Virus record (IMG/VR): IMGVR_UViG_2778260994_000001
Direction: 5' to 3' (one strand)
DNA from: a virus
Lineage: Duplodnaviria; Heunggongvirae; Uroviricota; Caudoviricetes
Length of the DNA stretch: 64,000 nt
Program-made: the position numbers and the translations under genes
Shown here: positions 1,013 through 63,546 of the stretch, one piece after another
Numbering within the stretch: position 1 is the stretch's first letter
Layout: the number at the start of each line of letters is the position of its first letter
The notes under the pieces: generated by a model
Databases searched by the model: none
Told to the model about the DNA's origin: nothing
What the model saw: the letters and a program-made list of their open reading frames with translations, nothing else

Positions 1013-1136
1013 ATTTTCTGCTCACTATCGTTATTTATAGCAAGCTGCGGATTTTAATTAACAAAAACCAGTATGTGTGGAAATCACAAAGTACATACCG
1101 TTCCCCAATGACGAACAACTCAAAATTGGCAAGGTT

Positions 1137-1421
1137 TTTATGTCTGACTTTACAATTTTATTTTTATCTATCTTTGGCGGAGTGCATTCGTTTCTGAATG
1201 GGGTTCGTGAAAAACGTTACGAAGCGTCATGCAGGCAATTGCTGGCCGAGTGTATTGCTGCCGTACTTGCAGGCTTTATAGGCATGTATTTCGCGGAATA
1301 TAAGGGTATGGATGAAAGTCTTCAGAATTGCGTGACTATTATTTGCAGCATCAATAACAGGCTCATTCTTGAAAAGTTACAAAGGATTATCGATTCGTAC
1401 CTCAATAGAAATGCCTCTTAA
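1137..1421 (+). CDS. Holin-like small membrane protein (LydC-like), paralog of the next gene
   Basis: Hydrophobic segments; collinear similarity to the 1489-1818 product; start moved to internal ATG with AAGG RBS. Confidence 0.45.
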   Translation, partial: FMSDFTILFLSIFGGVHSFLNGVREKRYEASCRQLLAECIAAVLAGFIGMYFAEYKGMDESLQNCVTIICSINNRLILEKLQRIIDSYLNRNAS

Positions 1422-1488
1422 GCAACAAATGACCGGTTGAGAAGTTACTTTGCATACCATTACCTCCTGACAACGTAGGAGGGAACTT

Positions 1489-1818
1489 GTGCTTGACACA
1501 CAGGAATTAGCTCCAGTTGCTATTGCGCTCCTGCTTTCAGTAATTGGTGGGATAGGCACGTTCCTGATGGATGTCCGAGACGGTCGCCAGTCTGGCAATT
1601 TGTTGGGATTGGTTACGGAGATCTTTGTTGCAGTGACAGCTGGCGCGGTGGCGTACCTATTGGGGCAACACGAGGGCTGGGAGTTATCAATTACGTACTT
1701 AATGGTAACGATAGCCAGCAATAACGGTCATGAGGTGATTTCAGGGATGAAACGAGTGAATATCGATAGCATTCTGAATGTTCTTACAAGTTTGGTGAAA
1801 AAGGGAGGCGGGAAATGA
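1489..1818 (+). CDS. lydA: Holin-like membrane protein (LydA-like)
   Basis: Two to three predicted TM segments; first gene of a dar-type operon by position. Confidence 0.45.
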   Translation: MLDTQELAPVAIALLLSVIGGIGTFLMDVRDGRQSGNLLGLVTEIFVAVTAGAVAYLLGQHEGWELSITYLMVTIASNNGHEVISGMKRVNIDSILNVLTSLVKKGGGK

Positions 1819-2258
1819 TTGGCTGGGGTGTATGCGTTCTTGCGTTAGCCTTAGCCGATCGCTATTTGCTAAAACGCAAGGACATCACGCATTTAGAACT
1901 TGGTGATGTGGAAATTAAACCGGGTTTCATCCGGGTGCCGTTCAAATACCGGTCTAAATTCCCGTTTTTGCGCGGCGCAACGGTCAGTTATTGGATCCGC
2001 GATGTTCAGAAGCCGACGACAGTGATTGAAGGCGAACAACGTTGTCTGACGTCGGCTGAACAGGGCGAAAACAGTGAATGGTTGTACATACCCACTGAAT
2101 ATATGGGTAAAGGAGAGCGACTGTGGCATTTCAACGTCATGGTTACGCATGGCGACTCGTTCATTAACCCGTTGTATCGGATTTTCCCTGTTTCTCAGCA
2201 AATCCGCAGAAGTTACGTAATAAATCTCGCACAGGATGTGTCAGATGACGAAAAATAA
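1815..2258 (+). CDS. lydB: LydB-like lysis regulator (antiholin candidate)
   Basis: 147 aa, start overlaps stop of the upstream holin-like gene; assigned by position and size only. Confidence 0.35.
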   Translation: MIGWGVCVLALALADRYLLKRKDITHLELGDVEIKPGFIRVPFKYRSKFPFLRGATVSYWIRDVQKPTTVIEGEQRCLTSAEQGENSEWLYIPTEYMGKGERLWHFNVMVTHGDSFINPLYRIFPVSQQIRRSYVINLAQDVSDDEK

Positions 2259-2847
2259 GTATGCAACGGTCGATTTTGACCAGGTTAATGAAAAGGGGCT
2301 GAAATCCCTTATCGCGGCGATCAATAAAACCGGTGTTACGGTAATTGAGGTTGACTCCAGCAACCGCGCAACAACGAAAGATGGCGTTAAAGTTAAAACC
2401 GCAAAGCTGGTTCTTAACGACGGACAAATTCTTGCCATACAGGTAAACGATACTGGCGATATATCGTCTGTGAAGCTGAATGGAAAAGCTATTCCTAACG
2501 CTCAGTCGCCGGATATCAAGACGCTTGGTACCGTCATGGGGCAAGCGGCCCGCAAAAACTCCGCAAAATTCCAGAAATCACTGATCGCCAAAGCGAAACG
2601 TGTTGCCAATCCGGTAGACAAGAAACCGGCAGTAAAATCCAACTTTCAGCGCCTGCAAGAGGCAAAACAGCGGAATGCTCAGGTGGTTGCCGCTTATAAA
2701 TCAGCGCAGAACTCGGTGTCTTTCAATCAACAGCAGATCACTGATTTGCGGGCGAAGCTGGATAAGGAGACAGGCCGACTCAATAACGAAAAGGCCCGAA
2801 ATGGCGAACTCAAACGCCGTCTTAAGCAACTGAAAGCAGGAAATTAA
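2236..2847 (+). CDS. hdf: Hdf (homolog of DarA fragment)
   Basis: Shares a KNSAKFQ-containing segment with DarA; sits immediately upstream of darA. Confidence 0.55.
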   Translation: MCQMTKNKYATVDFDQVNEKGLKSLIAAINKTGVTVIEVDSSNRATTKDGVKVKTAKLVLNDGQILAIQVNDTGDISSVKLNGKAIPNAQSPDIKTLGTVMGQAARKNSAKFQKSLIAKAKRVANPVDKKPAVKSNFQRLQEAKQRNAQVVAAYKSAQNSVSFNQQQITDLRAKLDKETGRLNNEKARNGELKRRLKQLKAGN

Positions 2848-2848
2848 C

Positions 2849-4768
2849 ATGGAACAGTTCAATATCAATAAAGGGGTGACGATCAAGCCTGGGCTTGACG
2901 TGCTTCCCCCGCCAGTGACTGATGATGAATATCGCGCATTAATGGCCGGTGAGGACCGCTATCTGATGACGGAATCCAACACCCTGGAGGAAATCGAGGC
3001 TACGTTCTTCTATGACACGCCGATCCACTGGTGTGCTACGGATTTACTGGAGGCGATTAGTTCTACTCGTTTGCAGTTACACCGGACCATGCAGGCATTT
3101 GTCCGGGCATTGAACCAGAAGCTGAATGGTACCGGAATCTCTGCGGGGAGTGATAAAACGGGGGATGTGGCCCAGAGCGGCGCGCGCGCGATCGGCGGCG
3201 CTGAAATTGGCCGGGCACGTAACGTTAACGGGCTGCCGGTCCTGCCAGCCATTATTCCGCTCAGTGATGGTCAGACTATCAGCATTCTGTTTCATAGCCC
3301 GACAGCGGAAAACCGGATCACCAATAGCGATACGCTGGTTGCTTTCCAGTTCTTACTGAATAAAAAAGACGTTACTCACACCGTTGCTCCGATGAGTGGA
3401 CGTGATATGACGCTGGCGCAGGTCACCATGAAACTTGCCAACCTTGCAGAGAAAAACTCGGCAAAATTCCAGCGTGCGCAGAAGAAGAAAAAAGCCCTTG
3501 TTGATGAAATAACCCAACTACAGGCTGACAGTGACCAGAAAGAGGATGCCATGAGCGACCTCGCGGATCAGGTGGCAGCGGTAGAAGGGCAGAAGGCAGA
3601 TCTGGAGCAGAAAATTAACGCTGTTGCATCGGAAGCGGATTCTCTTTATGAAGAGAATGAGCGTTTGCAGACGGAGATTGATCAGCTCAATCGCACTGGT
3701 GGGCGCGATACCATTGCTCCAGCGGGGATGACTGGTGGGCACTCTCGCGCGCTGACGGATCGCCTTGCCAGTATCAAAAATCGTATGCATATGGACGGGG
3801 AAGCGACGCTCAGTAATGGTGCATCAATGAAGCAATTCATTGGGGATGGCGAAGGGTATATCCAGTTAACCGATCCGGATGGCAGCGTATACATGATCAA
3901 GGCTAAATCCATACAGGGTGTGGACATGGCAGATGCGATCGGCAAGCTGTTTAAAGCCTATAAAGCGGGTAATGTATCGGAATATCTGGTCCAACCAGAA
4001 GAACATAAACCGGAAAACGTCGAACCTGAACCAGCGGAGGATACCGGTAGCTCTTCGCCTGAACCAGAAGTCTCTGTAGGTGCATATCGATATGCCCTGC
4101 AAATGCGTCCGGCGGCCCCTGGCGCAATACCTGAAGGTAACAAAGCGATTCTGCCGCGCCCTGATGAAGGTGACCCGTATTATGAATATGCACGCTACGG
4201 CATTGCTACTTACGATACCCCGCTTTCTGATCAGCAAATGAGTGAGTACGACCTGAAGTTATTGCCTCGCGAGGATTCTTTCGACTTCCTGGCGAAGACA
4301 CTTACTAATGGTCCGTTTGGCAAATATGCACAAAAAGCTCTGGAGCTGGCCACCAGCTCACCAGACGAGTTCCGCGTAATGCTGAAAACTCAGTTTCAAA
4401 AAACTTTCCCCAATATTGCGTTTCCTGGGGGAGCTGGCACCGAGAAAATGGTGCAGAGCATGATCAATGCATTGCAGGCCGAAGTCGGTGAGATTACTCA
4501 GCCAGAACCGGCCCCGGCACAGCCTGATGAAACGGTTAGCGAAGCAGATGCAGAGGCTAATAAAGCCATTGAATATCTCAATAACGTGATGGATATGAAA
4601 AGCACTGACATGGCGGAGATCCGTAACGCCCGGGGCAATGTCCGGGAAGCGATTGCAGCCCTTCAGGCTGCCGGACGTTTTGAGGAAAACGAAGAGCTGG
4701 TTAACGGCGCAGCTCGCCACCTGGCTGATCTGCTGGTAGCAATCCAGAAAGCGGGGGTAGCGGCATGA
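2849..4768 (+). CDS. darA: DarA antirestriction / head-internal protein
   Basis: 639 aa, matching recalled P1 DarA size; coiled-coil middle; position in operon. Confidence 0.7.
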   Translation: MEQFNINKGVTIKPGLDVLPPPVTDDEYRALMAGEDRYLMTESNTLEEIEATFFYDTPIHWCATDLLEAISSTRLQLHRTMQAFVRALNQKLNGTGISAGSDKTGDVAQSGARAIGGAEIGRARNVNGLPVLPAIIPLSDGQTISILFHSPTAENRITNSDTLVAFQFLLNKKDVTHTVAPMSGRDMTLAQVTMKLANLAEKNSAKFQRAQKKKKALVDEITQLQADSDQKEDAMSDLADQVAAVEGQKADLEQKINAVASEADSLYEENERLQTEIDQLNRTGGRDTIAPAGMTGGHSRALTDRLASIKNRMHMDGEATLSNGASMKQFIGDGEGYIQLTDPDGSVYMIKAKSIQGVDMADAIGKLFKAYKAGNVSEYLVQPEEHKPENVEPEPAEDTGSSSPEPEVSVGAYRYALQMRPAAPGAIPEGNKAILPRPDEGDPYYEYARYGIATYDTPLSDQQMSEYDLKLLPREDSFDFLAKTLTNGPFGKYAQKALELATSSPDEFRVMLKTQFQKTFPNIAFPGGAGTEKMVQSMINALQAEVGEITQPEPAPAQPDETVSEADAEANKAIEYLNNVMDMKSTDMAEIRNARGNVREAIAALQAAGRFEENEELVNGAARHLADLLVAIQKAGVAA

Positions 4769-8130: not shown

Positions 8131-8428
8131 AATCGCAGCGCCATTAGGCGGAGATGCCATTATCGAATTTGATGATAATGAAGAAGTTTCCGGGCGTTTA
8201 AGCATTATCTCCGGTGACATTACCGAGGACATGATCGCTGAAGCCATAGCTGGAGCAAATCCCAATAGCTATATGGGATTCGTTAACACCCTTGATGCTC
8301 CCGCAAGTGATGTTCTCCGAACGCTGCATCTTTACGCTGGCTGGTTTGTTGATTGGCCAGCAGTAGATGGTGGTGATGAGGACGACGACGATGATTTTGG
8401 TGATCATATAGACCAGATCATATATTAA
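8120..8428 (+). CDS. Hypothetical protein with poly-acidic C-terminus (DGGDEDDDDDFGD)
   Basis: Overlaps ddrB stop; followed by a terminator. Confidence 0.4.
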   Translation: MQIKIAAPLGGDAIIEFDDNEEVSGRLSIISGDITEDMIAEAIAGANPNSYMGFVNTLDAPASDVLRTLHLYAGWFVDWPAVDGGDEDDDDDFGDHIDQIIY

Positions 8429-8430
8429 AG

Positions 8431-8457
8431 AAATCCCGCCAATCGGCGGGATTTTTA
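8431..8457. terminator. Rho-independent terminator between convergent genes, likely bidirectional
   Basis: Stem aatcccgcc / ggcgggatt with 4-nt loop, then TTTTT. Confidence 0.55.
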
Positions 8458-8459
8458 CC

Positions 8460-9554
8460 TCACGAGAAGCTCTTTTCTGATGTCAGCCAACAGTGCTCGT
8501 GCAAATCTCTTGGTGGTTTTTCGACAAATGCCTCTTCAGCCACATCCTGCCAGGGGATTTGTTTAGCCCATTCAGCTATAGCGTTATGGTTTGCCGAGAA
8601 TAACGGTATTGTATAGGCCTTCAGCCAGTCTAATGTGCTGGAGTTGTGTTTTTGAGCGTGATGTTTCGCATGGTGTTTGGCGATCACGATCGTAGGCACT
8701 ACCCATTTACTACCGTCAGTCATTGTGAAGTGCATATTACGGGGAACAGATGACTTTTCCATCAACTCCCGAATCCCGGGAAATTTCCCCAAGATCAATC
8801 GGCGATATTCATCGCTATTGCGCCCACCAAACTCTTTGGCTTTGAATTCAAGATATGCTTCAGAAACGAGAGGTGAATCCTCTGTGTTTAGAGTTATCGC
8901 CGTGAAAAAACCAGCAGGATTGTTTTTACTATGGGCCAACCGGTGATGCGAATCATAAAAGTACCCTTTCTCGCGTTCCGATGGTTTCGACAGCAACAGC
9001 AGGCGCGAGTCATAATTGGTTAAATTGCCAGTTATCACTGCATGAGCGCGATCGCTGATTTCCGCCGAGTTAATAACGATGAAAAGATCGTGCGGTCCAG
9101 TAAAACCAGCCAGAGACACTTCGTTATTCAGACAATAGGTTATATAGACGCATCCCCATATTTCACTGATATGCACCAACCCTTTGTCAGGGTGCATTCT
9201 GAAATGATTGCCAAGAAAAGGGTGTTTTTGGGTAACTCGCTCCCAATAACGGAACATATAGTCAATTATTGTTTTTCGACTATCGTTAATAGCAGGAGAA
9301 ACAACCACTGTACGGGAACACGAATACAGTATTGTTTGCAGGATGCTAATCACTGCCACAATAGAGGTTTCCCCAATACCATGTGGTGTGGTGGCAGTGA
9401 CTTTGGCTCCGGTGTTCTTTATCGCGTTAATAATTTTTGCTTGATGAGGTGTTAACTCAATATCAAGCAACTCTTTCGCTGCCAGTTCCCAATTGTCTTT
9501 ATACTGTTCTATCAGTGCTAACCAGGCAGGTTCATTCTGTATACGATTAGTCAC
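8460..9554 (-). CDS. Paralog of the terminase large subunit (PacB) N-terminal ATPase domain, degenerate Walker motifs, no nuclease domain
   Basis: Collinear similarity to PacB (28278-29762) over the N-terminal region; PacB GHGTGKS aligns to PHGIGET and IIDEAS to VINSAE; protein is 364 vs 494 aa. Confidence 0.6.
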   Translation of the reverse strand: MTNRIQNEPAWLALIEQYKDNWELAAKELLDIELTPHQAKIINAIKNTGAKVTATTPHGIGETSIVAVISILQTILYSCSRTVVVSPAINDSRKTIIDYMFRYWERVTQKHPFLGNHFRMHPDKGLVHISEIWGCVYITYCLNNEVSLAGFTGPHDLFIVINSAEISDRAHAVITGNLTNYDSRLLLLSKPSEREKGYFYDSHHRLAHSKNNPAGFFTAITLNTEDSPLVSEAYLEFKAKEFGGRNSDEYRRLILGKFPGIRELMEKSSVPRNMHFTMTDGSKWVVPTIVIAKHHAKHHAQKHNSSTLDWLKAYTIPLFSANHNAIAEWAKQIPWQDVAEEAFVEKPPRDLHEHCWLTSEKSFS

Positions 9555-10341
9555 TTTCCACCTCTTCCGTGGTGTTTTCTTGCAGTTCTGTTAATGCAGC
9601 ACGACACAGGTTCCGGGCCTTGGCTATAGCCACACTTTTGACTTCATCTGTCATCGTGCAGGTAATGTACTGATCGAGTTCTTCAGCGCGGATGATGCTT
9701 TTGCCAATCAGAAACTGTATTTGCCAGAGCAGATCGGCATCCATAATCAGAATTTCTGCCGGGCCTTCAGGGCCAGCCGGGAAGGAAACATAAGACTGTT
9801 TGCCAAGGCCGATAACTCGACAACTTGCTTCAAGAATTGCGCGCTTGAGGTCTGACTTTGTAACTGAAACAGGTTGATTTTCACCTGCGATTACGCCGTT
9901 GACATGGATGTGGAAGGGCATGTAGCTTGAAATTCGCTCTACTTTCCATACGCCAGCAAGCGATCCTTCATGCAGCACAATGGGGGTAACAGCGAGTTTC
10001 ATCTCACCATATAACTGCTGGCAGATAGCTGGATTGCTGAATACATCCAAAGGTTCACACTCAAACAGCGGTGCAATCTGCATGAGGTCCATCATGGTCA
10101 TACCTGGGGTACGAGCGGTAATGAATCTGCGCATGCCAGTATCCATTGTTCGCCAGATAGCTACACCATGCTTTTTGCTCACTTCTTCAGTAAAGCCAAG
10201 GTGGCACATGATGGTTTTTTCGATAGCCAGATCAGAGATAGAAACCTTTTCGCCTGGCACTCCATCATTATTGATGGTCACTTCGACACTCTGGCCATTA
10301 CGTAGGCGGTATTGAATGGTTTTAGTATTTTGTGCTGTCAT
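9547..10341 (-). CDS. Hypothetical protein, translationally coupled to the terminase-like paralog
   Basis: 264-aa ORF; stop overlaps the downstream start (ATGA). Confidence 0.5.
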   Translation of the reverse strand: MTAQNTKTIQYRLRNGQSVEVTINNDGVPGEKVSISDLAIEKTIMCHLGFTEEVSKKHGVAIWRTMDTGMRRFITARTPGMTMMDLMQIAPLFECEPLDVFSNPAICQQLYGEMKLAVTPIVLHEGSLAGVWKVERISSYMPFHIHVNGVIAGENQPVSVTKSDLKRAILEASCRVIGLGKQSYVSFPAGPEGPAEILIMDADLLWQIQFLIGKSIIRAEELDQYITCTMTDEVKSVAIAKARNLCRAALTELQENTTEEVESD

Positions 10342-10538
10342 AGTCTTTTCTCTGCTTAAAAACTGATGTATTGCGCCTTCAGGTTGGTTAGGAATGTTTT
10401 CCCACCAGCGAAAGCAATATCTCGGGGTGTTCTATTCGTTAAAAGCGCGTGCCATTGCCAACTTTGGCGTTTTTGAGCGAGTTCGTGCTTTTGTCGGCGT
10501 CTGGACCACCGCTTTTCTTTCAGTCGTTTTTTACACAT

Positions 10539-11027
10539 TCAAAACGGAATATCGTCGTCAAAGTCCATTGGAGGTTCGTTATTGGCGTTGCTCTGAGGTT
10601 TACCGCCACCACTGTATTGCTGGTGGTTTTGAGGTTGGTTTGATTGCCCCCAGCCATTTGAGGACTGTGAATCGTCACGGCGAGCGCCGATCATTTGCAT
10701 GGTGCCGCCCTGGCTGACGATAATTTCCGTCGTGTAACGTTCTACACCGGCGTCATCTGTCCACTTACGGGTTTTAAGTTTCCCTTCGATGTAGACCTGA
10801 GAACCTTTTCGTAAATATTCACTCGCAATTTCAGCAAGTTTCCCGAACAAAACGACTTTATGCCATTCTGTTTGCTCTTTCTGTTGGCCCGTTTGCTTGT
10901 CGCGCCATGATTCATTCGTTGCGATGCTGAGTCTTCCGACCGCGCCGCCATTTGGTATATACCTGATCTCCGGGTCTTGCCCCAGGGTACCAATCAGGAT
11001 GACTTTGTTTACACCGCGTTGTGCCAC
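10539..11027 (-). CDS. ssb: Single-stranded DNA-binding protein
   Basis: OB-fold N-terminus typical of SSB, Gly/Gln-rich linker, acidic tail DFDDDIPF. Confidence 0.9.
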
Positions 11028-11046
11028 TTATCTTACCTAATAAAAT

Positions 11047-11063
11047 AAATTAATTAGAGCAAT
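11047..11063 (-). promoter_or_regulatory. C1 repressor operator-like site upstream of ssb
   Basis: aaattaattagagcaat, 16/17 to the reverse complement of ATTGCTCTAATAAATTT. Confidence 0.65.
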
Positions 11064-11087
11064 AATGTATATCTTTGAAACGTAGCT

Positions 11088-11109
11088 AACAAGTGATTTG
11101 CATTATCCT
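11088..11109 (+). promoter_or_regulatory. Putative late promoter for lyz
   Basis: aacaagtga-N7-tatcct; same architecture recurs upstream of other late genes. Confidence 0.35.
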
Positions 11110-11196
11110 GTGTCTTCTAAAGGGATCGAGTCAGTCGGTATTGGCTGTGAATGGGTGTTTGTCCTGGAGCGTAAAAAATTCGCTTATGAGGTCTTT

Positions 11197-11754
11197 ATGA
11201 AGGGAAAAACAGCCGCAGGAGGCGGTGCAATTTGCGCTATCGCGGTGATGATTACCATCGTGATGGGTAATGGCAATGTGCGAACCAACCAGGCGGGGCT
11301 TGAGCTGATTGGTAACGCTGAAGGTTGCCGACGTGATCCATACATGTGCCCGGCAGGGGTATGGACTGACGGGATCGGTAATACACACGGGGTAACGCCG
11401 GGTGTGCGAAAAACAGACCAGCAAATCGCCGCTGATTGGGAAAAGAATATCCTGATCGCTGAACGCTGTATTAATCAGCACTTCCGGGGCAAAGACATGC
11501 CCGATAATGCCTTCAGCGCAATGACAAGCGCGGCATTCAATATGGGATGCAATAGTTTACGGACCTACTACAGCAAAGCGCGAGGCATGCGAGTCGAAAC
11601 GTCCATCCACAAGTGGGCGCAGAAAGGGGAATGGGTGAATATGTGTAACCATCTCCCTGATTTTGTGAACAGTAACGGCGTCCCCCTGCCCGGGTTAAAG
11701 ATTCGCCGTGAAAAAGAACGCCAGCTTTGCCTGACGGGGCCGGTCAATGAATAA
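11197..11754 (+). CDS. lyz: SAR endolysin (T4-lysozyme-like), Lyz
   Basis: N-terminal Gly/Ala-rich weak TM (GGGAICAIAVMITIVMG), then lysozyme E...D...T catalytic region; 185 aa from internal ATG. Confidence 0.8.
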   Translation: MKGKTAAGGGAICAIAVMITIVMGNGNVRTNQAGLELIGNAEGCRRDPYMCPAGVWTDGIGNTHGVTPGVRKTDQQIAADWEKNILIAERCINQHFRGKDMPDNAFSAMTSAAFNMGCNSLRTYYSKARGMRVETSIHKWAQKGEWVNMCNHLPDFVNSNGVPLPGLKIRREKERQLCLTGPVNE

Positions 11755-26743: not shown

Positions 26744-26760
26744 AGAATTATTAGAGCAAT
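26744..26760 (-). promoter_or_regulatory. C1 operator-like site
   Basis: Core attagagcaat. Confidence 0.65.
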
Positions 26761-26826: not shown

Positions 26827-26843
26827 ATTGCTCTAATAAATTA
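26827..26843 (+). promoter_or_regulatory. C1 operator-like site upstream of coi
   Basis: attgctctaataaatta, 16/17 to consensus. Confidence 0.65.
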
Positions 26844-28277: not shown

Positions 28278-29762
28278 TTATTCATTAAGCCATGCCAGAG
28301 CTTCATCAACCTGCGCTTCGTCTTCGACGCTAAGCACTTCATCCTGGGGAACATAATCCGCCAGCATAGCGAAACAATATGTATCCCAATGGTCTGGTGA
28401 GTGCAGGTTGAGTTTTTTCTTCATATCCTCCTTACTCATCACCTTCCATTGACCTGCGGAGTTAATCCCTACAGGGATTTTCGACGCTTCCTCAATAGTT
28501 TCATTACCCTTATCCAGTCTCATACGACCAGATTTTACGGCCTCTGCGGCTTGAACGTTGGCATAAGCACGTTTATCAAAGTACAGGCTCTTATCTTCAC
28601 GGCTATGCATCTTTTTACCCCAGCGTATACGCTGTACGGTAATACCATAATACTCGTACATCAGATCCGCCGTTGCTTTACCCAAGCCATCGCCGTCTAT
28701 CGCTATGGTGATATTTGGGAATCGCTCAGGATTGCATTCTGCGAAAATTTTGGCGGCAAGCTGCGTTTCTGTAACGTCTGTGTATTCCAGCATTCGATAG
28801 TTGATTACACGGCGTTTATTTCGCTGGCCGGACACCATCATGATATTGATAACGGACTTATCCCGTCCCGTACCACCAGCAACGTCCACACATGCAAGCC
28901 AGCCCCATCCTTTGGCAATCTTGACTTTCCGCCGCGTTGCACGTTCAACCTCATCACGTCCAAGAAGGAAGCCATCCTGTGATTTAGGGAATAGGCCGCG
29001 TACCTTAATCATGTACATAGGGTTATCACGCCCGCCGTACTCCGCCAGCTTCATTTTGATAAATGCTGGCGTTACCAGCGGTGATTCCTCACTGTTAAGC
29101 GTGATCGCCGTATAAACGCCATCAGGGTTACCAGGACGCTTGGCCAGTTTATGGTGTGTATCGTAGAAATAGCCGCTTGGGCGTGTAGGCTGTGACAGTA
29201 ATAAGATGCGGTTATCCTGTCCGGTAAGAGCACCGGTGATGATACCGAAAGCTCTATCACTGACACCGGAGGCTTCATCGATAATATACAGAAGATGATC
29301 TGCGTGTTCACCGGCGAGAGCTTCTTCACTTCCCAGACGAAAGCCCTTCGGTACTACAGTCCATACACCTTTACCAGTAACCTCATAGAAAGCGGTTTCT
29401 GTCAGAACAAAATAATCAGCAAGCCATGGGAAACGGCTGGTGGCAGTAGCCCAGTTTATCTTGATGTACTTGAATATACCGGTCATTACCTGCTGAATTT
29501 TGTTCGCAACGATAATGGCGCGGGCACCGGGATACATGATTATGAACAACATGATCATGATAGAAGTCATGTCTGATTTCCCGGTACCGTGACCAGACGA
29601 AACAGATGTCTTGCTACCCTGTTCCTGCACAGACTCAATAATCAGATCCTGCTGCCAGGTAGGTGTTTTGCCGAACAAAACATCAGCGGCAGCAATCCAG
29701 TCATAACGATATAGCGCCACCAGCTCGCGCCAACGTGGATCCGTTACGCAACTTCTGGCCAT
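28278..29762 (-). CDS. pacB: Terminase large subunit PacB
   Basis: 494 aa; P-loop GHGTGKS; downstream of pacA. Confidence 0.9.
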
Positions 29763-30955
29763 TAATCATCATCCCCGTATAGCTTGCGGGTAACTTCTTC
29801 GTCTTCCTCCTCGTCTTCGTCCAGGTCTTGTTCCAGCCATGGGTCGTTTGATACACCTTCAGTATCAACATCTCCATAACCGCCTGTATCAACGATATCG
29901 GCGATTTCTTCCCTACGCTGCTCAATCCACAATGCGGCATCGGCGCGGCGGTTGGCGGCCCGTTCTCGCGCAACTTTGTCCAGATCTTCAAGAGAAGGGC
30001 CACCGACGGCTGTTTGCCTTTCCTCATCATCGGTATTGGTCTTCGGAGCACGCAGATCGGCTTTGATTTGCTCCAGCATCAGGGGCGGCACTTTCCCGCC
30101 ATGCGCCTCGATGAATTCAGCTGCTTCCAGCACTGACCAGTTATTTTCACGCTTTCGTTCGTATGCCAGCTTAACAATGCCAGCTTGCCCCATAGACAAA
30201 GCGTGCTTTTCCGCCTCCCGGCTTTCTTTTCGATAGTTATTCCGGATGCTGTAAATGGTGTTGATCAGGCTGCTTATCTGCGCGGAACAGCTGTTTAGCA
30301 TGCTCGCGATACGGTATTCAGGCGGAGTACCTTCATCATCGTCCTTTTGCTGATCGCGCATTTCCTGCACCAGGCGAATACACGTATCCCTGGCGTTCTC
30401 CAGCATAAGGAGATGAGAAAGAGACTTTTCAAGAAGAGTGGTTTCCAGAACATCGGCCCCGGACCGACGCAACATAGCGCGCGCGGCCTTCCGCGCTTCA
30501 ACGTTATCTATCAGGTAATCGCCAGCTTCGAATTCAAAGCGTTCACCATCATCATCCAGGGTGTCGCGTTCCAGGCGATCACGTAAGGTCCGGTGGGCGC
30601 GGGTGATCACGTCATGATCATCTGAACGATCATTTATGCGCTTATTTTGGCGCTTCGCATTCTCGACTGCGGCACTGACAACGGCATTAACTCTCTGTTT
30701 TTCCGCTATTTCAGCCGCAATATGATCACCTGCATGTTGATCATTAGAGTGATCAATGATCATGCTTTTTAGTGGCTTCCTGACTGGCTTATTTGGCTTG
30801 CGGCTGTCCGCAGTCCTGGTGTCTTCTTTGAAGGCACGGAGATAACGACGTGCGGTATTAGGGTTAAGATTAAACTCGGCGGCATACTGTGCGATGGTGT
30901 AACCACCATCTCGCGCCAGGCGAGCAAAATTCTTTTTGTGATCGTCCCAGGTCAC
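29762..30955 (-). CDS. pacA: Terminase small / pac-recognition subunit PacA
   Basis: 397 aa; contains the pac site; acidic C-terminus. Confidence 0.85.
30605..30761. other. pac packaging site (3 + 4 clustered GATC hexamers)
   Basis: GATC at 30605, 30616, 30628 and at 30724, 30739, 30751, 30758, all inside pacA. Confidence 0.7.
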
Positions 30956-59339: not shown

Positions 59340-60007
59340 ACTTGCCGGGTACGTCTCCGGCGAGGGCTTCCACCTCCGTATGCTTTTCGGCGCACCGCGC
59401 CCTGGCTGCAATTCGGTAACAGGGGATGCATAACCCTGGCTTCCAGCGTGATTAGCGCTTTCAGCATGACGGGATATACCCGTAAATTCGTGGAACTGTA
59501 CCCAAAGTGCTGTTAAGCACCGCTGTTACGCTGAAAAGAAGACGCAACAGGAAAGGACGCTGACCAACAGATGGCCCCTTCTCGTTCATCTGGTTAATCA
59601 CACCAGCGCCCTTACCTGTTGTGCCTCCCCGTTCCCTAATACACAGACGGGGACACTCTGCGGTCGATTTTTTGACGGGGGACGACTCATACCCCGTGGC
59701 GTCTGGCTTCTTAGGCCGCTACCATCATCAGATCATCGTTTGCATTTACTTTAATGGTCAGTTTCTAAAACGCCGCAAAGTCGCTAACCATGACGAAAAC
59801 CCTGAAAAAAACGCCCACCCGAAGATGGGCAAACTGGAAGCTCGTAACGCACTTCGGTGTTGCCACTTAGGCGTATGGTCAACCTGGCAACTCGGCGTCA
59901 TGAGGGGGAAGGAGTCACTACCCCGCCATACTTGCCGCCGCGCCTGTCGCGGCTAACAGCTAAATCGCTCTATAAATCACGATTCATTGAGGCGATATTA
60001 CACTAAT

Positions 60008-60024
60008 AAATTTATTAGAGCAAT
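60008..60024 (-). promoter_or_regulatory. C1 operator, perfect 17/17, with overlapping divergent partner (59997-60013, 15/17)
   Basis: aaatttattagagcaat; overlaps the dmt stop and precedes a 600-nt leader with tRNAs. Confidence 0.75.
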
Positions 60025-63529: not shown

Positions 63530-63546
63530 ATATTTATTAGAGCAAT
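63530..63546 (-). promoter_or_regulatory. C1 operator-like site
   Basis: atatttattagagcaat, 16/17. Confidence 0.65.

Follow-up and report, generated by a model that had tools for sequence, protein, structure and literature searches.

A predicted PacB-derived pseudo-terminase in the ssb operon of P1-like phage-plasmids

The described proteins closest to the one considered here are PacB, the large terminase encoded beside pacA in P1-like phage-plasmids, and T4 vs.8, Ksap1 and Ksap2, terminase-ATPase-like phage proteins that are not terminases and have been proposed as possible anti-defence proteins (PMC13601566, PMC11564622). The gene we investigated lies at positions 8460-9554 (minus strand) of a 64,000-nucleotide stretch of viral DNA (IMG/VR record IMGVR_UViG_2778260994_000001), called the window below. 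The window belongs to a P1-like phage-plasmid (Punavirus); its positions 8300-11200 are 98% identical to MH422554 and MH445380, and 97% identical to reference P1 where alignable. It is near certain that the 364-amino-acid product is a PacB-derived, selectively maintained pseudo-enzyme, and we refer to it as the pseudo-terminase.

Like PacB, the pseudo-terminase is collinear over the whole ATPase domain, shares the motifs GYFYD.HH, SPLV, GGR and G.FP, and comes from the same element group. Unlike PacB, it has no GK[ST], no Walker-B DE, no SQPTR threonine and arginine, and no RNase-H-like nuclease domain; it is dispensable and sits in a C1-controlled early operon, whereas PacB is encoded beside pacA. 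T4 vs.8 and, more loosely and in fold only, Ksap1 and Ksap2 resemble it as stand-alone terminase-ATPase-like domains encoded away from the packaging genes, and Ksap1 tolerates deletion and is in this respect similarly dispensable. However, vs.8 keeps Walker A and B and is related to the T4 terminase, whereas the pseudo-terminase has lost these motifs and derives from PacB, not from T4 gp17; it also differs from all three in its extra C-terminal domain and its coupling to IsaA, with no detectable sequence link. The motif in its last ~95 amino acids is shared with the family of gp35 from phage JK004 and with the C-terminus of PHROG 17928, usually a separate small gene near dnaB or a methylase gene, or the tail of a coiled-coil protein; the pseudo-terminase instead fuses this domain to a dead terminase ATPase domain. 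Downstream of isaA, P1 has IS1 and isaB, and the window has the overlapping pseudo-terminase gene. A gene resembling Tad2 (Thoeris anti-defence 2, DUF2829) directly precedes the pair in four relatives (L013, L014, L019 and L020); Tad2 itself is unrelated to IsaA and to the pseudo-terminase. The predicted combination of a catalytically dead ATPase, fusion to a distinct domain, coupling to IsaA and confinement to P1/D6-like phage-plasmids sets the family apart. Our literature search found no described terminase decoy, pseudo-terminase or second P1 terminase, and no paper on this family.

Loss of catalytic residues and retention of the gene

The 364-amino-acid product matches PHROG 2, 'terminase large subunit' (E=9e-8), and GenBank entries label the paralog either 'terminase large subunit' or 'hypothetical protein'; a sequence search of the PDB with it gave no significant match. 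An earlier note on this DNA had claimed a collinear alignment with the ATPase domain of PacB and the replacement of both Walker motifs. The alignment with the resident PacB holds over 276 residues at 34% identity (BLASTP, E=1e-54), and the replacements are exact: SSGHGTGKS of PacB reads TTPHGIGET in the paralog, and LLYIIDEAS reads DLFIVINSAE. Four lineages of the pseudo-terminase, 33-43% identical to PacBs in the ATPase domain, carry the following residues at these positions.

P1-type (window): Walker A position PHGIGETS, Walker B position VINSAE
D6-type a: Walker A position PHGIGRPQ, Walker B position IVDSAH
D6-type b: Walker A position PEGIGQKT, Walker B position VTEAAL
L058 lineage: Walker A position GEGVGTKT, Walker B position VLNASD

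For comparison we used 24 PacB orthologs, ranging from Enterobacteria to Vibrio, Photobacterium and Pseudoalteromonas and 47-91% identical to the window's PacB. SGHG[TVC]GKS and DE[AS]SG are present in 24/24, whereas both GK[ST] and DE are missing from every pseudo-terminase lineage. The alignment check that the note had proposed for Walker A and B thus finds the motifs lost in every pseudo-terminase lineage and kept in every PacB ortholog. Beyond the Walker motifs, we checked across the four lineages the 80 positions of the PacB ATPase domain with a conservation of 95% or higher. All four lineages keep 27 of the 80, mostly a scaffold of glycine, proline and aromatic residues together with the GYFYD.HH motif, and 24 of the 80 are lost in all four. 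The shared losses include K62 and S63 of Walker A, D162 of Walker B, and Q191, T193 and R194 of SQPTR, a motif of PacB that is read as a coupling motif from general knowledge of terminases and helicases rather than from a P1 experiment. Four further conserved basic residues of PacB (R19, K98, K131 and K253) are also lost in every lineage. The replacement residues at the dead site vary from lineage to lineage, which suggests that constraint was removed from the former active site and not that a new active site arose. Judged by its predicted features, the protein falls short of a large terminase in every functional respect.

The nuclease domain, which the note had described as missing, is a more complicated case: there is indeed no nuclease, but the region is not simply absent, a different conserved domain standing in its place. 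Positions 411-470 of the PacB profile align with solved terminase nuclease domains, and the paralog lacks those positions. A tblastn search with residues 263-364 recovers the paralogs, gp35 of the P1-like Cronobacter phage JK004, and the C-terminus of a Xanthomonas phage protein. In JK004, gp35 is a free-standing gene of 98 amino acids located two genes after the DnaB helicase gene; in the Xanthomonas phages the domain forms the last ~100 amino acids of a 471-amino-acid coiled-coil protein encoded in a recombination module, beside recombinase, exonuclease and SSB genes. Scanning viral contigs with the C-terminal domain added ~40 relatives, 26-40% identical and nearly all free-standing open reading frames (ORFs) of 96-140 amino acids. 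The free-standing family has the motif MPDGS.W.VP..VIA..RA.YYA...TLPLF...EIEDWAANNMNWSDV...GW.NGEK, and MPDGS.W.VP..VIA..RA.(H/Y)YA...T.PLF...W(A)...W.DV is common to the family and the pseudo-terminase domain. The free-standing gene follows dnaB in JK004 and in the contigs L061 and L082; the neighbours of such genes include DnaB helicases and DNA methylases and are mostly uncharacterised. When the profile of this family was compared with that of the PacB family by hhalign, the probability was 0.17%, and a PDB search with the C-domain profile returned no significant match. A first alignment had paired 'EWAKQIP' with 'EEASKIP' and so suggested a nuclease remnant at the C-terminus; in view of the free-standing family and the hhalign result, this reading was rejected. 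By these comparisons, what stands in place of the PacB nuclease is evidently a member of a distinct domain family with no relation to it.

The C-domain family as a whole (L059-L100; L015 4010-4306; window 8463-8747; MPDGS.W.VP..VIA..RA.YYA...TLPLF...DWAANNMNWSDV) is widespread and strongly conserved, and has neither a Pfam model nor a structure. The pseudo-terminase fusion is the window's only copy of the domain. Elsewhere in the window, positions 55342-55617 (minus strand) encode a homolog of JK004 gp34 (tblastn E=5e-13), the gene that in JK004 lies between dnaB and the free-standing C-domain gene.

Pairwise identity among the four pseudo-terminase lineages is 36-53%, and each of them has an intact ORF. 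The ratio of nonsynonymous to synonymous substitution rates (dN/dS, Nei-Gojobori; overall range 0.28-0.33) is 0.30 at dS 0.18 between the window and L019, 0.28 at dS 0.20 between L019 and L020, and 0.32 at dS 0.80 between the two D6-type copies. The intact lineages, the ratios of about 0.3 and the full-length state of all 101 E. coli copies (see below) indicate a gene under purifying selection and not a decaying pseudogene. In a neighbour-joining tree, which left out the fourth lineage, L058, the P1-type and the two D6-type pseudo-terminases form one clade in 200/200 bootstraps; the position of this clade inside versus outside the PacB orthologs drew 104/200. Identity in the ATPase domain is 45-53% among the paralogs, compared with 62% between the P1-type and D6-type PacB, which suggests that the paralogs evolve faster. 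No paralog is closer to the PacB of its own element than to other PacBs.

We surveyed 5,426 complete E. coli genomes for the P1-type genes.

P1-type pacB: 599 genomes of 5,426
P1-type isaA: 335 genomes of 5,426
364-amino-acid gene: 100 genomes of 5,426

Thus ~11% of the genomes carry a P1-type pacB and ~2% the pseudo-terminase gene, which follows isaA in ~30% of the isaA-positive genomes. Its copies number 101; all of them cover at least 80% of the query, and 99 are plasmid-borne. In PLSDB, 120 of 765 PacB-positive plasmids carry the paralog at 80% identity or more, and ~40 more have a form that is ~50% identical; the lineage of the 53% identical homolog P0002 is the same one represented there. 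In an IncY plasmid of Escherichia albertii (L019 2501-4734) the gene is cut at codon 331 by an IS911-family insertion. The pseudo-terminase is dispensable, because it is present in only ~100 of ~599 pacB-positive genomes and is absent from reference P1.

The ssb operon and the cassette in related elements

The features of the locus, with pacB as a comparator outside the module, are listed here in window coordinates.

11064-11092, minus strand: P2ssb promoter (equivalent of P1 Pr21), carried over from the P1 annotation through a 97% identical alignment with an offset of +6205
11047-11063, minus strand: C1 operator ATTGCTCTAATTAATTT (equivalent of P1 Ossb/Op21), 1 mismatch to the consensus; the homologous site is annotated in P1
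11030-11057, minus strand: P1ssb promoter, overlapping the C1 operator, mapped from the P1 annotation
10539-11027, minus strand: ssb, the operon's first gene (Pfam SSB, E=7e-40), so named in P1 and relatives
10342-10538, minus strand: spacer between ssb and isaA, without a terminator-like site on the coding strand; the Tad2-like (DUF2829) ORF of relatives starts at its 3' end
9547-10341, minus strand: isaA, 264 amino acids, ortholog of P1 IsaA
9558-9564, minus strand: Shine-Dalgarno sequence GAGGTGG of the pseudo-terminase gene, within the 3' end of isaA and 3-4 nucleotides upstream of the overlap of the two genes, read from the sequence
9547-9554, minus strand: 8-nucleotide start/stop overlap GTGACTAA of isaA and the pseudo-terminase gene, read from the sequence
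8460-9554, minus strand: ORF of the pseudo-terminase gene (PacB paralog), 364 amino acids, GTG start
8760-9554, minus strand: N-domain of the pseudo-terminase, residues 1 to ~265, predicted PacB-type ATPase fold with the catalytic residues lost
8463-8747, minus strand: C-domain of the pseudo-terminase, residues ~270-364, of the free-standing ~100-amino-acid phage protein family
8431-8454, minus strand: intrinsic terminator-like hairpin closing the operon, with a 10-bp stem, 6 GC pairs and a T-rich tail
28278-29762, minus strand: pacB, the bona fide large terminase

The note had placed the gene downstream of ssb behind a C1 operator and had described it as translationally coupled to a 264-amino-acid gene. 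Both statements are borne out by the operator at 11047-11063, with no terminator-like site on the coding strand between ssb and the isaA and pseudo-terminase genes, and by the 8-nucleotide overlap GTGACTAA behind GAGGTGG. The window contains 8 C1-operator sites, compared with 0 expected by chance, and a simple consensus scan gave no match for the P2ssb promoter. The pseudo-terminase gene is thus predicted to be the last gene of the C1-repressed ssb operon, and we infer that its product is made early after derepression, ahead of the late-expressed PacA and PacB. The pacA-pacB genes lie at 28278-30955, and the pseudo-terminase gene, ~19 kb away in the ssb operon, has no small terminase gene adjacent to it. 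The locus adjoins the Dar anti-restriction operon, and hxr and ddrB, on the plus strand, are convergent with the ssb operon.

The seven other C1-operator matches, with 0-2 mismatches, are located at 26744-26760, 26827-26843, 43692-43708, 49458-49474, 59997-60024 and 63530-63546, the interval 59997-60024 being an overlapping inverted pair. The hairpin at 8431-8454 is a single, perfect stem between the convergent hxr and pseudo-terminase genes, and was scored on the minus strand only, that is, on the pseudo-terminase side.

The 264-amino-acid protein that the note had called unknown is P1 IsaA: the two are 96.6% identical over the full length and occupy the same place downstream of ssb, and the product matches PHROG 2326 (E=8.5e-151). 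In P1, isaA is non-essential by CRISPR interference (PMC10695390). The P1 record (NC_005856, L001 3342-4304) annotates isaA as 320 amino acids from an upstream GTG that spans the ssb-isaA spacer, as opposed to 264 amino acids for the window ORF; since in relatives the spacer precedes a different gene, this N-terminal extension is probably an annotation artefact. The dN/dS of IsaA is 0.09-0.19. An AlphaFold2 model built with 21 remote homologs from an exhaustive HMMER search reached a predicted local distance difference test score (pLDDT) of 87 and a predicted template modelling score of 0.84, whereas a 4-sequence alignment gave an unusable model (pLDDT 42). In the model, two alpha/beta domains are accompanied by a long C-terminal helix and an acidic tail; Foldseek found no PDB match below E=0.1, and in BFVD the sole match was the protein of P1 itself. 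Of the alignment columns, just five are invariant among the 21 homologs (L128, W132, A168, G178 and D223), one of them acidic and none basic. A nuclease-like protein was considered for IsaA and rejected, as these homologs have no conserved nuclease-type catalytic constellation. We read the modelled IsaA as a non-enzymatic binding protein.

The note had left open whether P1 itself carries the paralog. Reference P1 does not: the homology between P1 and the window ends precisely with the isaA stop codon (window 9546) and is found again from the end of hxr (window 8429); the P1 sequence in between contains IS1 and an unrelated isaB of 201 amino acids. The name IsaA ('IS1-associated' protein, gp017 of P1) stems from an accident of the P1 reference and does not describe a function. 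The isaA-IS1-isaB stretch is recognised as variable among P1-like plasmids (PMC6906374, PMC9603915).

The proposal that the two genes form a module finds support in D6-like phage-plasmids (L013 and L014), where the pair recurs in a different operon at 48-52% identity and again overlaps. In these elements c1 / cre-like recombinase is followed by two unknown genes and dut, and then by a gene with a Tad2-like domain (PF11195, E=1.7e-17), a homolog of IsaA (48% identical) and the paralog (49-52% identical). The IsaA homolog and the paralog share an overlap of 11 or 14 nucleotides, with a terminator-like hairpin behind them. No C1 operator was found in the D6-like locus within 3 mismatches. In the P1-like contigs L019 and L020, the Tad2-like gene, isaA and the pseudo-terminase gene follow ssb in the same order as in the D6-like elements, the Tad2-like (DUF2829) gene occupying L019 1012-1713 and L020 1042-1719. 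The window and P1 lack exactly this ORF, with a junction at window 10338|10331, within 10331-10341 (minus strand). The ATG of isaA in the window corresponds to the start codon of the Tad2-like gene in relatives, and IsaA begins here with MTAQNTK and not with VENTK. In relatives, then, IsaA and the pseudo-terminase appear to travel with the Tad2-like gene as a cassette in two different operons.

Other contexts separate the two genes. The JK004-like contig L058 (3200-4318) encodes a 362-amino-acid pseudo-terminase directly after dnaB, followed by a GC-rich hairpin. No IsaA gene lies just ahead of this pseudo-terminase gene, and none of the neighbours scanned is Tad2-like. In this contig, positions 1763-1790 contain the exact 11-nucleotide C1-operator core ATTGCTCTAAT ~30 nucleotides upstream of dnaB, the match being to the core only. 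The L058 protein is 40-43% identical to PacB and 36-39% to the other pseudo-terminases; as it is about as close to the one as to the others, an independent duplication and fusion is possible for this lineage. Conversely, remote IsaA homologs (~23% identical; L017 6001-6888 and L018 6001-6876) occur in the c1/cre/dut early operon of other P1-like phage-plasmids without a pseudo-terminase. These contexts indicate that IsaA is the older resident of early operons and that the paralog is a later addition, found usually but not always with IsaA. In L018, an unrelated ORF of 111 amino acids overlaps and follows the remote IsaA homolog. A further observation concerns the P1-like contig L005, in which pro and the lysis genes are separated by an insertion with a beta-lactamase gene and a DDE transposase (1020-3176), ~2.5 kb from the ssb operon.

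Possible roles of the pseudo-terminase

A pseudo-terminase of this kind would be made early, before the late pacase; it would not carry out canonical ATP hydrolysis, DNA translocation or pac cutting, and would therefore work by binding. We tentatively favour a role as a dispensable early accessory or as a counter-defence or host-directed binder, within which counter-defence is our best guess, though one of minority probability. A role in DNA packaging seems less likely than this. What favours counter-defence is the cassette with a Tad2-like gene, the adjacency to Dar, the behaviour as part of a variable region together with the faster evolution, and the loss of the ATP site and nuclease that Avs2 and Avs3 read. 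The recognition of terminase by Avs2 relies on terminase-bound ATP, and the ATP site and nuclease are the features read by Avs2/Avs3 (PMC13601566). In one version of this reading, the terminase-shaped protein would engage host factors that recognise large terminases, without offering the ATP-site and nuclease features that the sensors read. The most specific form, in which an early mimic of the large terminase occupies or blunts the sensors Avs1-3 and Upx before PacB appears, is in our analysis distinctly doubtful. Lacking the ATP site and the nuclease, such a mimic would not activate the sensors productively, and it would have IsaA and the C-domain as its partner or anchor. With the Tad2-like gene added, P1/D6-like phage-plasmids would possess a mobile counter-defence cassette directed at several targets.

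Several observations weigh against a counter-defence role. The window itself has no Tad2-like neighbour, and the early expression of the pseudo-terminase is read from the operator position and the P1 annotation. The gene of L058 follows dnaB without an adjacent IsaA, and the free-standing C-domain genes lie near replication genes or DNA methylases; a replication-linked role fits both arrangements equally well. The known terminase look-alikes Ksap1, Ksap2 and vs.8 trigger Avs2 and do not block it. Pfam and NCBIfam scans of the pseudo-terminase and IsaA gave no matches, and PADLOC-DB returned none at E<=0.1 for the pseudo-terminase, IsaA or Hxr.

The descent of the paralog from PacB invites an explanation in terms of packaging, in which the dead protein keeps the partner surfaces of PacB and forms inactive complexes with PacA, PacB or the portal, either restraining premature pac cleavage by the resident pacase or poisoning the pacase of another P1-like phage, or of a satellite, that shares or superinfects the cell. 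Ring ATPases are known to be poisoned by dominant-negative subunits, and phage-inducible chromosomal islands and Staphylococcus aureus pathogenicity islands are examples of satellites that target terminase small subunits. Conservation is consistent with retained surfaces, since the N-terminal 40 residues of the D6-type proteins are 40-45% identical to P1 PacB, compared with 40-42% for true PacB orthologs in the same region, and residues 161-240 are the best conserved (40-52%). However, the gene is found in ssb, cre/dut or dnaB operons and never beside pacA/pacB, and in no lineage does the paralog resemble the resident PacB more than it resembles other PacBs, so that there is no sign of co-evolution. 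The terminase C-terminal domain, which binds the portal in several systems, has been replaced. Moreover, P1 and most P1-like elements package without the paralog, and a poison subunit made early would harm the packaging of its own carrier too. We therefore consider a packaging modulator unlikely. The suggestion in the earlier note that the protein regulates packaging or excludes satellites is left without support by the gene's location, its lack of special closeness to the resident PacB, and the normal packaging of P1 in its absence.

A replication or recombination accessory, in which the C-domain docks on SSB, DnaB/Ban, a recombinase or DNA and the dead translocase fold is a DNA-binding or scaffolding module, is in our judgement similarly improbable. 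The positions of the genes suggest it: the pseudo-terminase gene follows ssb in the window, dut in the D6-like elements and, directly, dnaB in L058, the free-standing C-domain gene is found after dnaB in the three elements named above, and the Xanthomonas C-domain protein is encoded beside recombination genes and an SSB gene. Yet early operons gather many unrelated accessory genes, which makes position weak evidence, and the C-domain also adjoins DNA methylases. The protein has no net positive charge (isoelectric point 7.1), and the basic residues R19, K98, K131, R194 and K253 that PacBs conserve are lost in all four lineages; in addition, the gene is dispensable and its distribution patchy.

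We regard it as very improbable that the protein is a deviant but active NTPase, whose altered P-loop and surviving Q-motif still bind nucleotide for use as an unconventional ATPase or a switch. Two lineages have G-x-K-T at the P-loop (GIGQKT in L014, GVGTKT in L058), Q38, the P-loop GxG and D169 after Walker B are invariant, and L014 keeps the Walker-B glutamate. Against this, the window copy (GIGETS and VINSAE) has neither the lysine and serine nor the acidic pair, the Walker-B aspartate, T193 and R194 are lost in all four lineages, and replacements that differ by lineage are what relaxed constraint at a dead site would produce. Lastly, a decaying pacB duplicate that hitch-hikes in the variable region would explain the lost catalytic residues, the patchy distribution and the copy truncated by IS911, but this non-functional relic is effectively refuted by the selection and conservation data, namely an intact ORF in four lineages 36-53% identical, dN/dS of ~0.3, 101/101 full-length E. 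coli copies, an overlap with isaA kept in the P1-type and D6-type loci, and 27 structural positions retained everywhere.

Significance

The locus corrects the reference picture of P1, in which IS1 hides the native arrangement, and it offers a clue to the function of three uncharacterised families: IsaA, the ~100-amino-acid C-domain family and the T4 vs.8-like proteins. The elements that carry it are common and also spread resistance genes. Among the proteins of tailed phages, large terminases are the most conserved, and they are a main target of bacterial pattern-recognition immunity (Avs1-3, Upx); because of this, a dead terminase paralog that selection appears to have maintained is a natural experiment. 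If the pseudo-terminase binds PacA or the portal, it would be a phage-encoded packaging regulator or an inter-phage weapon, and if it binds the replisome, the fold of a packaging motor would have been reused in replication. Should it bind immune sensors, phages would be countering defence by mimicking one of their core proteins, and a true mimic would be the first decoy to imitate a conserved phage 'pattern' protein.

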